DNA of 23,570 nucleotides, from the IMG/VR virus record IMGVR_UViG_2563366944_000005, one strand, 5' to 3'. The notes below the pieces were generated by a model that was not told the origin of the DNA, searched no databases, and saw nothing but the letters and a program-made list of their open reading frames with translations. This stretch comes from a virus (taxonomy: Duplodnaviria > Heunggongvirae > Uroviricota > Caudoviricetes). A program made the position numbers and the translations under genes. Shown here in pieces: positions 21,432 to 21,998 of the stretch. Position 1 is the first letter of the stretch, and every line of letters begins with the position of its first letter.

Positions 21432-21771
21432 TAGCTAATCAACAAAGCTAAGGTTAGTAATTAAGGAGTTCTCCACGGGTGAGGTGGAGTGCGTGCGCCG
21501 GACACGGGTGCGCATCCGGAACTGACAGTTTACTGAAAGGATATTTCCCTGAAAAGTCAGACCATAACGCGAAAGCGCACGGCGAGGTAGCTGGTTCATA
21601 GATAGCCTGTCGTTAAATTTTCGTCGACCGTGCGCTTCCGGTTGTGGCAACCCGCGAAATGGCGCGGCGGTAAGTATGGCGGGGTTATTCCTTCCCCGTT
21701 GAGGACACCGGGTTGTCAGGTTGACCATACGCTTAAGTGACAACCCCGCTGCAACGCCCTCTGTTATCAAT

Positions 21772-21824
21772 TTTCTGGTGACGTTTGGCGGTATCAGTTT
21801 TACTCCGTGACTGCTCTGCCGCCC
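21772..21824 (+). ncRNA. dicF: DicF small regulatory RNA (53 nt) with 3' stem-loop and U-run
   Basis: tttctggtgacgtttggcggtatcagttttactccgtgactgctctgccgccc then TTTTT; matches recalled DicF; upstream of dicB. Confidence 0.85.
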
Positions 21825-21998
21825 TTTTTAAAGTGAATTTTGTGATGTGGTGAATGCGGCTGAGCGCACGCGGAACAGTTAAAACCAAAAACAGTGTTAT
21901 GGGTGGATTCTCTGTATCCGGCGTTAATTGTTAACTGGTTAACGTCACCTGGAGGCACCAGGCACTGCATCACAAAATTCATTGTTGAGGACGCGATA

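Follow-up and report, generated by a model that had tools for sequence, protein, structure and literature searches.

The window analysed here (the whole stretch of DNA, 23,570 nt long) is a viral sequence of the class Caudoviricetes (IMG/VR record IMGVR_UViG_2563366944_000005), and the element in question is the spacer between ydfC and the small RNA DicF. This spacer divides into two: the 5' part carries a helix for RNase III, and the 3' part, hereafter the core, is a separate conserved module (Table 1). Our favored reading, which we place slightly above even odds (roughly 0.55), is that the spacer, as non-coding leader of the dicBF operon, serves as a processing-and-folding device for a stable RNA, with the core as the folded body of a processed phage leader RNA. 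The conserved unit is the folded core plus an Hfq-type terminator tail, roughly a published 190-nt RNA, and DicF is one version of that tail. The initial annotation of the spacer, made from the sequence alone, overlooked that the processing was already published and that the spacer's 3' third is a widespread conserved module independent of DicF.

Fold and conservation of the core

The window corresponds to the dicBF operon of the Qin cryptic prophage, with the gene order and spacing from dicA to ydfC exactly as in E. coli K-12. We used blastn to align the ydfC-dicF spacer; this analysis found 100% identity to E. coli ATCC 8739 and 99.7% identity to K-12. The spacer covers 21432-21772 (341 nt), running from just after the ydfC stop codon, whose last base is 21431, to the Rfam match to DicF, which begins at 21773 (RF00039, a 52-nt covariance model; 21773-21824, plus strand, 76.7 bits against a gathering score of 48); the spacer itself lies outside that model. 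The initial annotation had described a GC-rich, highly structured spacer of about 340 nt. The structure is borne out: with loop lengths set to 3-80 nt, we counted six perfect inverted 8-mer repeats, versus 0.38 ± 0.81 expected from 1000 dinucleotide shuffles, only two of which reached six. All four inverted repeats named in that annotation were found at the places given, namely AGCGCACGG (21574-82) with CCGTGCGCT (21628-36), GGTTGTCA (21711-18) with TGACAACC (21738-45), CCGGA (21498-502) with TCCGG (21515-19), and CCGCG (21652-56) with CGCGG (21663-67). The description as GC-rich holds only mildly, with 52.8% in the spacer and 58.3% in the core compared with 46.5% in the window. The folding z-scores of 21432-21830 are nearly equal on the two strands (-2.84 on the plus strand and -2.83 on the minus strand), and thermodynamics therefore gives no choice of strand; the core was assigned to the plus strand because G-U pairs are frequent in its covarying helices, P0 among them.

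We collected 73 distinct versions of the core by pattern scans and with a covariance model. In the model-based alignment, 95.6% of cells at the proposed helices are paired, versus 34-56% when the partners are slid. Covariation across relatives had been proposed as a check in the initial annotation, and 13 of the 33 core pairs change on both sides, compared with 4.0 ± 1.3 in shuffles and 1-5 in the slid controls; a MAFFT alignment gave the same picture. The double-changed pairs are distributed as 6/9 in P3, 3/5 in P2, 3/8 in P0, and 0/5 in P1, such that the repeat GGTTGTCA/TGACAACC corresponds to a covarying helix (P3), whereas CCGCG/CGCGG corresponds to a helix (P1) that is conserved without covariation. 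About 10 distinct stem sequences occur in P2, and its loop is pyrimidine-rich in all lineages (UUCCUU, CUCC, UCUCC). The covariance model built from the core (R1) scores the window at 155 bits. Two unpaired blocks, GCGGUAAG and CAGGUUGACCAUACGC, are nearly invariant, although this invariance is partly imposed by the search patterns.

Table 1. Positions of the core, its helices, and the surrounding leader elements in the window.
Feature	Positions	Strand	Basis or remark
Four-helix-junction core, 115 nt	21641..21755	+	Minimum-free-energy fold of the isolated core, and covariation
P0, closing helix	21641-48 / 21748-55	+	
P1	21652-56 / 21663-67	+	
P2, CU-rich loop	21680-84 / 21694-98	+	
P3	21710-18 / 21738-46	+	
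Near-invariant unpaired blocks	GCGGUAAG 21667-74; CAGGUUGACCAUACGC 21717-32	+	
Candidate pseudoknot	GUAUGG 21674-79 with CCAUAC 21725-30 (P3 loop)	+	Complementarity in 73 distinct sequences
Single-stranded linker (RNase E-made 5' end and 5' seed of the 53-nt DicF)	21756..21786	+	Alignment of downstream regions; lineage-variable
DicF terminator	Hairpin GGCGG 21787-91 / CCGCC 21819-23; U-run 21825-29; ends 21830	+	Rfam structure line
Long-range double-stranded RNA helix, ~22 bp (predicted)	21562-21585 / 21624-21647, ~38 nt enclosed	+	Inverted repeat and minimum-free-energy folds
5' leader segment, local hairpins	21432..21561	+	blastn: covered by close relatives only (Qin/dicB-type operons)
Structured dicF-dicB leader	21832..21982; 21-bp closing helix 21832-52 / 21962-82	+	Folding z-score -4.93
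dicBp promoter	20792..20820	+	Hexamers TTGACC (20792-97) and TAATCT (20815-20), 17-nt gap; read from sequence

A loop-junction pseudoknot may form within the core, and we offer it as tentative. One compensatory event (GCAUGG/CCAUGC in phages P1 and P7) and two wobble variants support it; however, uncompensated changes in several lineages (GUAUGA, GUAUAG, GUCUGG) contradict it, and the G-to-A changes in the pseudoknot strand suit an extended P2 instead (GGCGGGG/CCCCGUU). It was the uncompensated changes, which appeared in further scans, that led us to downgrade this contact. Pairing of the P2 loop with GAGGA, located just 3' of P2, was also considered; it occurs in some lineages and is missing in phage P1, L022, L196, and L202, and was rejected as a conserved contact.

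The same sequence variation bears on whether the spacer encodes protein, by way of a 111-aa minus-strand open reading frame (ORF; 21435-21770) or plus-strand ORFs at 21479-21601 (40 aa) and 21630-21740 (36 aa). Several phage records do carry the annotation "hypothetical protein" over the spacer, the 36-aa ORF has a PHROG match (phrog_8854, function unknown; E = 7e-12), and AAGGAG lies 8 nt before the GTG at 21479 that would start the 40-aa ORF. However, none of the three ORFs has a Pfam match, and neither the 111-aa nor the 40-aa ORF has a PHROG match. Among near-identical relatives, P2 differs by indels of 1 nt (CCCCG versus CCCCCG) and of 4-5 nt, and substitutions are compensatory in the RNA helices, via G-U intermediates too. 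The 40-aa ORF is not conserved, as its start codon is GTC in phiSTEC1589 and an early TGA interrupts it in L013, and the whole core is cleanly missing in the phiSTEC1589 lineage. We attribute the phrog_8854 match to nucleotide conservation, and the frame-breaking indels contradict a coding reading of it. The ORFs in the spacer are spurious, including the minus-strand frame that the initial annotation had already dismissed, and we give a coding spacer almost no credence.

Processing of the leader and a proposed folding pathway

The initial annotation noted that DicF is excised from the polycistronic dicB transcript by RNases, and this is published for K-12. DicF is cut from a transcript that starts at dicBp, with no internal promoter (PMC10448788, confirming Faubladier et al. 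1990). RNase III creates the 5' end of a stable 190-nt DicF species by cutting "between positions 813 and 814," the 53-nt DicF needs RNase E, and the two species are both stable in stationary phase (PMC10448788). A second RNase III site downstream of DicF has been published as well (Faubladier, Cam & Bouche 1990; Ragunathan et al. 2023, PMC10448788), and K-12 transcripts of 1,146 nt and 1,608 nt extend past the DicF terminator (PMC10448788). In the searchable literature, the 137 nt located 5' of mature DicF are handled only as precursor.

We infer that transcription from dicBp starts at about 20828. By arithmetic from the published K-12 numbers, the RNase III cut would then fall at 21640|21641, immediately before the first base of P0, and the 190-nt species would span 21641-21830; that is, a start at 20828, a cut at 813|814, and a length of 190 nt lead to 21830, the end of the U-run of the DicF terminator. 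With the same start, the 1,608-nt transcript ends in the T-run of a terminator at 22411-22437, and the end of the 1,146-nt transcript falls in the 3' arm of the hairpin 21832-52 / 21962-82. Because two independent terminators fit the numbering, we take this mapping as sound, although it is still an inference. The further RNA species that the initial annotation had envisaged in the spacer is thereby accounted for, as the conserved domain forms the 5' body of the published stable 190-nt RNA.

The long-range helix in the 5' part of the spacer is predicted to be the RNase III substrate; the dependence on RNase III is published (PMC10448788), whereas the helix is based on folding. Its last 7 bp involve GUUGUGG (21641-47), which is shared with the 5' strand of P0. 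A long helix that overlaps the P0 5' strand was predicted in 11 of 13 lineages tested, with sequences that differ by lineage. The same design, in which an upstream strand pairs a stretch ending in GUUGUGG, appears in cdtI/Citrobacter, in Erwinia/Salmonella F1055/L213/L049, in Serratia, and in mEp460. With regard to a DicF precursor processed by RNase III, the 5' end has a predicted helix, and the product would, by the arithmetic above, end at the DicF terminator. The proposal in the initial annotation that the stems act in processing or stability fares differently by stem: AGCGCACGG/CCGTGCGCT, its main stem, lies inside the RNase III helix and, at the same locus as in K-12, coincides with the published site, but CCGGA/TCCGG has no independent support. 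The latter belongs to the 5' leader segment, which aligns with 83-90% identity to phiSTEC1589 and E. coli OZ040208 without clean compensatory changes. The folding z-score of 21432-21650 is -2.98.

Two observations concern variants of this helix. The viral contig L013 has lost the RNase III stem and the 5' strand of P0 through a deletion between two CGCGAAA repeats (window 21568-74 and 21654-60), which shows these short direct repeats to be recombination-prone. In Erwinia- and Salmonella-type leaders (L202 4440-4530, with the equivalent in L220 and L049), the RNase III-type helix encloses an insert with hairpins whose loops resemble those of tRNA T-arms (GGCGGGUUCAAUUCCUGCC, GUCCGUUCAAUUCGGAC, and CUGGUUCGAUUCCAG).

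These results suggest the following pathway. During transcription from dicBp, the upstream strand of the long-range helix would pair with its downstream strand, forming a helix of about 22 bp that sequesters GUUGUGG. RNase III would then cleave this precursor helix at the mapped site, and the released 5' end could pair with the 3' strand of P0, closing the P0-P3 junction, possibly with the loop-junction tertiary contact. The closed junction would form the 5' body of the 190-nt RNA that ends at the DicF terminator. The linker alone would stay single-stranded, and RNase E would cut it, which would yield the 53-nt DicF. Across enterobacterial temperate phages, the body is retained, whereas the linker or seed and the upper terminator stem are exchanged. 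According to this scheme, P0 would switch after cleavage, and the core would act as a stabilizing or maturation scaffold and likely as a binding platform. Such a scaffold explains why the long species is stable, why double-stranded RNA flanks the module, why the terminator is retained, and how a core-less lineage can exist (see below).

Several points weigh against this reading. The persistence of the 190-nt species is the sole reason for giving the core a stabilizing role. The near-invariance of the unpaired blocks GCGGUAAG and CAGGUUGACCAUACGC points to binding by a specific macromolecule, and a simple stability cap would have no use for such blocks. Nor is the switch upon cleavage universal, because the core of phage P1 lies near the promoter without an RNase III stem. 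The diversity sampled is narrow, as it covers Enterobacterales with a mean column identity of 88%, and it was partly set by the search patterns. The folding z-score of the isolated core is unremarkable (-0.68), and the minimum-free-energy fold of the entire 190-nt RNA favors other long-range pairing, of the core with the DicF 3' arm.

Distribution, terminator coupling, and possible functions

Based on blastn, the spacer is a mosaic. Query positions 210-332 recur just downstream of cI in cdtI, Stx2c, Ayreon, and 2H10 phages, and query positions 221-317 recur in P1 and P7, about 100 nt past the C1-controlled P1ban promoter, where they overlap a feature annotated merely as "dicF-like region." The 73 versions originate in Escherichia, Shigella, Citrobacter, Trabulsiella, Serratia symbiotica, Erwinia tracheiphila, and a Salmonella phage; most pattern matches in genome contigs outside Enterobacterales are chance matches, as the pattern is loose. 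Among 5426 complete E. coli genomes, 4417 (81%) contain the core, at a median of 2 and no more than 8 copies per genome, and 506 of the E. coli copies are on plasmids; none of the E. coli core matches listed carries any annotation. Each phage record has one core place based on blastn, and R1 detected no second, diverged copy, with a single match in the window and in the whole cdtI genome.

Within Rfam 15, scans at the gathering score and, for 21350-22000, at E ≤ 10 identified no match to the spacer or core, and around it returned just DicF, a sub-threshold STnc100, and a chance ftsZ-DE match. A core fold common to lambdoid prophages, P1/P7, and several genera was not found in the annotation of the records read, apart from the "dicF-like region" label in P1, or in the searchable literature, which does not include Faubladier 1990 or the Lobocka 2004 P1 genome paper; a previous study reported no DicF or DicB matches in phage genome databases (PMC5069750). 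The folded core thus appears undescribed as a conserved RNA family, whereas the RNase III stem and the 190-nt species are already published.

A natural allele lacks the core. In phiSTEC1589-Stx1c (L217 1385-1410) and in about 67 E. coli genomes, a GAAUA loop caps P0 (GUUGU-GAAUA-ACAAC) and replaces the entire core, while the RNase III stem, the terminator, and kil are retained. The core is therefore not indispensable for the operon, at least in that lineage. Other records call for comment on their origin. In vB_Apl-pPE4 (L003 2600-2800), a tandem duplication covers the linker, the terminator, and the beginning of the next element, so that two terminators are present; this phage is labeled as an Actinobacillus phage, and the label seems doubtful because its immunity region (dicA, ydaT, kil, exoVIII) and core look enterobacterial. 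Three metagenome bins labeled Bacillota, Veillonella parvula, and Collinsella (L184, L186, and L195) contain cores identical to E. coli or P1 versions, and these bins are likely contaminated.

In all 81 distinct contexts (81/81), the core is on the sense strand and is followed, ≤170 nt past P3, by a hairpin and U-run. More than 20 distinct terminator hairpins follow the core, nearly all with a GGCGG/CCGCC base. The linker and the upper terminator stem vary between lineages, DicF being one of these variants. Past the terminator, Qin-type and cdtI/Erwinia-type loci have another long hairpin, so in lambdoid types double-stranded RNA borders the module at either end. In the window, this hairpin is the structured dicF-dicB leader, which has a sub-threshold Rfam match to STnc100 (34.1 bits against a gathering score of 47). 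Based on the arithmetic above, the published 72-nt DicF 3' end and the end of the 1,146-nt transcript land in the two arms of its helix, and this leader is probably the downstream RNase III site. The element is also located before kil/dicB in pPE4, L056, and phiSTEC1589.

Two further features concern the terminator. The core sequence GGCGGUA (21668-74) is repeated as the terminator 5' arm (21787-93), and most other lineages are alike in this, though P1 is not. In the minimum-free-energy fold of the 190-nt RNA, the core copy pairs with the terminator 3' arm, a pairing of the kind that a terminator-coupled riboswitch or attenuator would use, but no covariation supports a switch; the repeat may reflect either a second conformation or the remnant of a duplication. 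In L202 (4667-4739), and also in L213, L196, and L169, an enlarged terminator hairpin has a loop with a Shine-Dalgarno sequence and an AUG (AGGAGAGCGAAGAUAAUG). The reading frame from this AUG crosses the terminator 3' arm in L202, which may allow translation-coupled attenuation.

The position of the core ahead of terminators raises the question of whether it acts in cis as a processive antiterminator RNA resembling HK022 put or Bacillus EAR, though unrelated to put in sequence. The nascent core would bind RNA polymerase, alone or with host factors, and cause read-through of DicF-type and later terminators, which would permit expression of dicB/kil, exo, xis, or P1 ban in phages without an N protein. 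In its favor, the core is always on the sense strand of a repressor-controlled early operon, before the first intrinsic terminator. In P1, it follows P1ban by about 35 nt and precedes a terminator, tRNAs, and ban; in cdtI, it comes about 280 nt past PL (TTGACA-16-CATAAT), ahead of every early-left gene, xis included; and in mEp460, it precedes dicB, exoVIII, and xis. The annotations of cdtI and of the 7-kb immunity/early-left stretch read for mEp460 include no N gene, although this is weak evidence because N proteins are diverse. Lambdoid phages without N were noted in a 2025 survey, in which a put-like mechanism was guessed for one of them (PMC12315714). The 1,146-nt and 1,608-nt species also show that the DicF terminator is read through in K-12, and the conserved unpaired bases suit a defined binding partner.

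Other evidence argues against antitermination. The core lacks similarity to putL and putR, as blastn against the HK022 immunity region gave only chance-level matches and R1 had no match in L005, and it has no Rfam match to EAR or any other family. Each phage has one copy of the core rather than a left and right pair, and in Qin-type operons 813 nt of transcript precede the core. The leader from dicBp to dicB contains no sequence resembling boxA, and matches in the window are at chance level. Retention of the terminator in every context is easier to explain as the 3' end of an RNA product than with a terminator-resistant polymerase, and the core-less variant still has a terminator before kil. 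We consider this function unlikely, although its probability is not negligible.

A trans-acting role would instead make the core a protein-binding or decoy RNA, or an antisense RNA that pairs with Shine-Dalgarno-like sequences via its CU-rich P2 loop, comparable to the leader-derived P1 C4 and P4 CI RNAs. The 190-nt RNA is discrete and stable, the core is cloverleaf-like with a closing stem and three arms, and the P2 stem is hypervariable, yet its loop keeps its pyrimidine-rich character; the abundance of the core in E. coli, at up to 8 copies per genome, is also consistent with such a role. However, no Rfam match to C4 or IsrK was found at E ≤ 10 in 21350-22000, ARAGORN identified no tRNA-like gene in the window, and no complement of the invariant P3 loop is present in the window or in the whole cdtI genome. 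Complementarity of the P2 loop to ribosome-binding sites is generic, and P1 has no ORF nearby to regulate. This role is improbable in our judgment, and the scaffold reading remains the one that we favor.

Additional matches lie elsewhere in the window: two to cspA-thermoregulator (6017-6402 and 8912-9304, minus strand) and one to the sok antitoxin (16150-16321, minus strand). These presumably correspond to the csp genes and the hokD locus of Qin.

Significance and comparison with known systems

DicF, which is among the oldest known bacterial small RNAs, has been studied as a 53-nt molecule, and our analysis indicates a module of about 190 nt in which DicF forms the variable tail. The module's folded 5' domain shows stronger conservation than DicF, is unannotated, and is absent from Rfam. 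The core is thus a candidate RNA family for which a natural deletion allele exists, and it is a candidate for escape from early termination in lambdoid phages that lack N. Should the core prove to be no more than a maturation scaffold, our findings would amount to a modest, though useful, refinement of what is known about DicF biogenesis. It is doubtful that the core represents a new class of RNA that targets either the transcription machinery or a host factor, in the first place as a processive antiterminator unrelated to put. If that were true, such an antiterminator would form part of the early operon in many temperate phages of enterobacteria and in P1-like plasmids, and would be found in about four-fifths of E. 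coli genomes; it would explain how lambdoid phages without N pass early terminators, and DicF and its variants would be small RNA tails grafted onto it.

Four specific identities for the core were considered and rejected. Its topology is cloverleaf-like, but the negative ARAGORN result and the lack of a T-loop consensus in the core argue against a tRNA or tRNA-like RNA. A lambda-type nut site is contradicted by the leader, which has no boxA, and by cdtI and the mEp460 stretch, which have no annotated N. A C4/CI antisense RNA was rejected given the lack of a model match and of a P3-loop complement in the window or cdtI. Homology to HK022 put was ruled out by blastn, the covariance model, the differing folds, and the single copy.

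HK022 putL and putR resemble the core as structured leader RNAs of repressor-controlled early operons, upstream of terminators, without N and without a dedicated phage protein; however, put is about 70 nt long, with two stem-loops and a triplex, suppresses termination without further factors in a manner dependent on the beta' zinc-binding domain, and is present in two copies per phage, whereas the core is a four-helix junction of about 115 nt in one copy. In Bacillales, EAR is a pseudoknotted RNA of about 120 nt that is located between operon genes and is linked to read-through of downstream terminators. This layout resembles that of ydfC-core-dicB, although EAR belongs to another phylum, differs in sequence, and gives no Rfam match here. 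The C4 RNA of P1/P7 and the CI RNA of P4 are likewise small stable RNAs with pairing loops that are cut from an early or immunity leader, and P1 carries both C4 and the core; these RNAs differ from the core in their length of about 70-77 nt, their maturation by RNase P, and their repeated target sites in the same operon. Compared with lambda nutL, the core is far larger, and its loci lack boxA/boxB and an annotated N; however, these loci resemble the lambda PL leader in their order of early-left promoter, RNA recognition element, terminator, long RNase III-type hairpin, and first gene.

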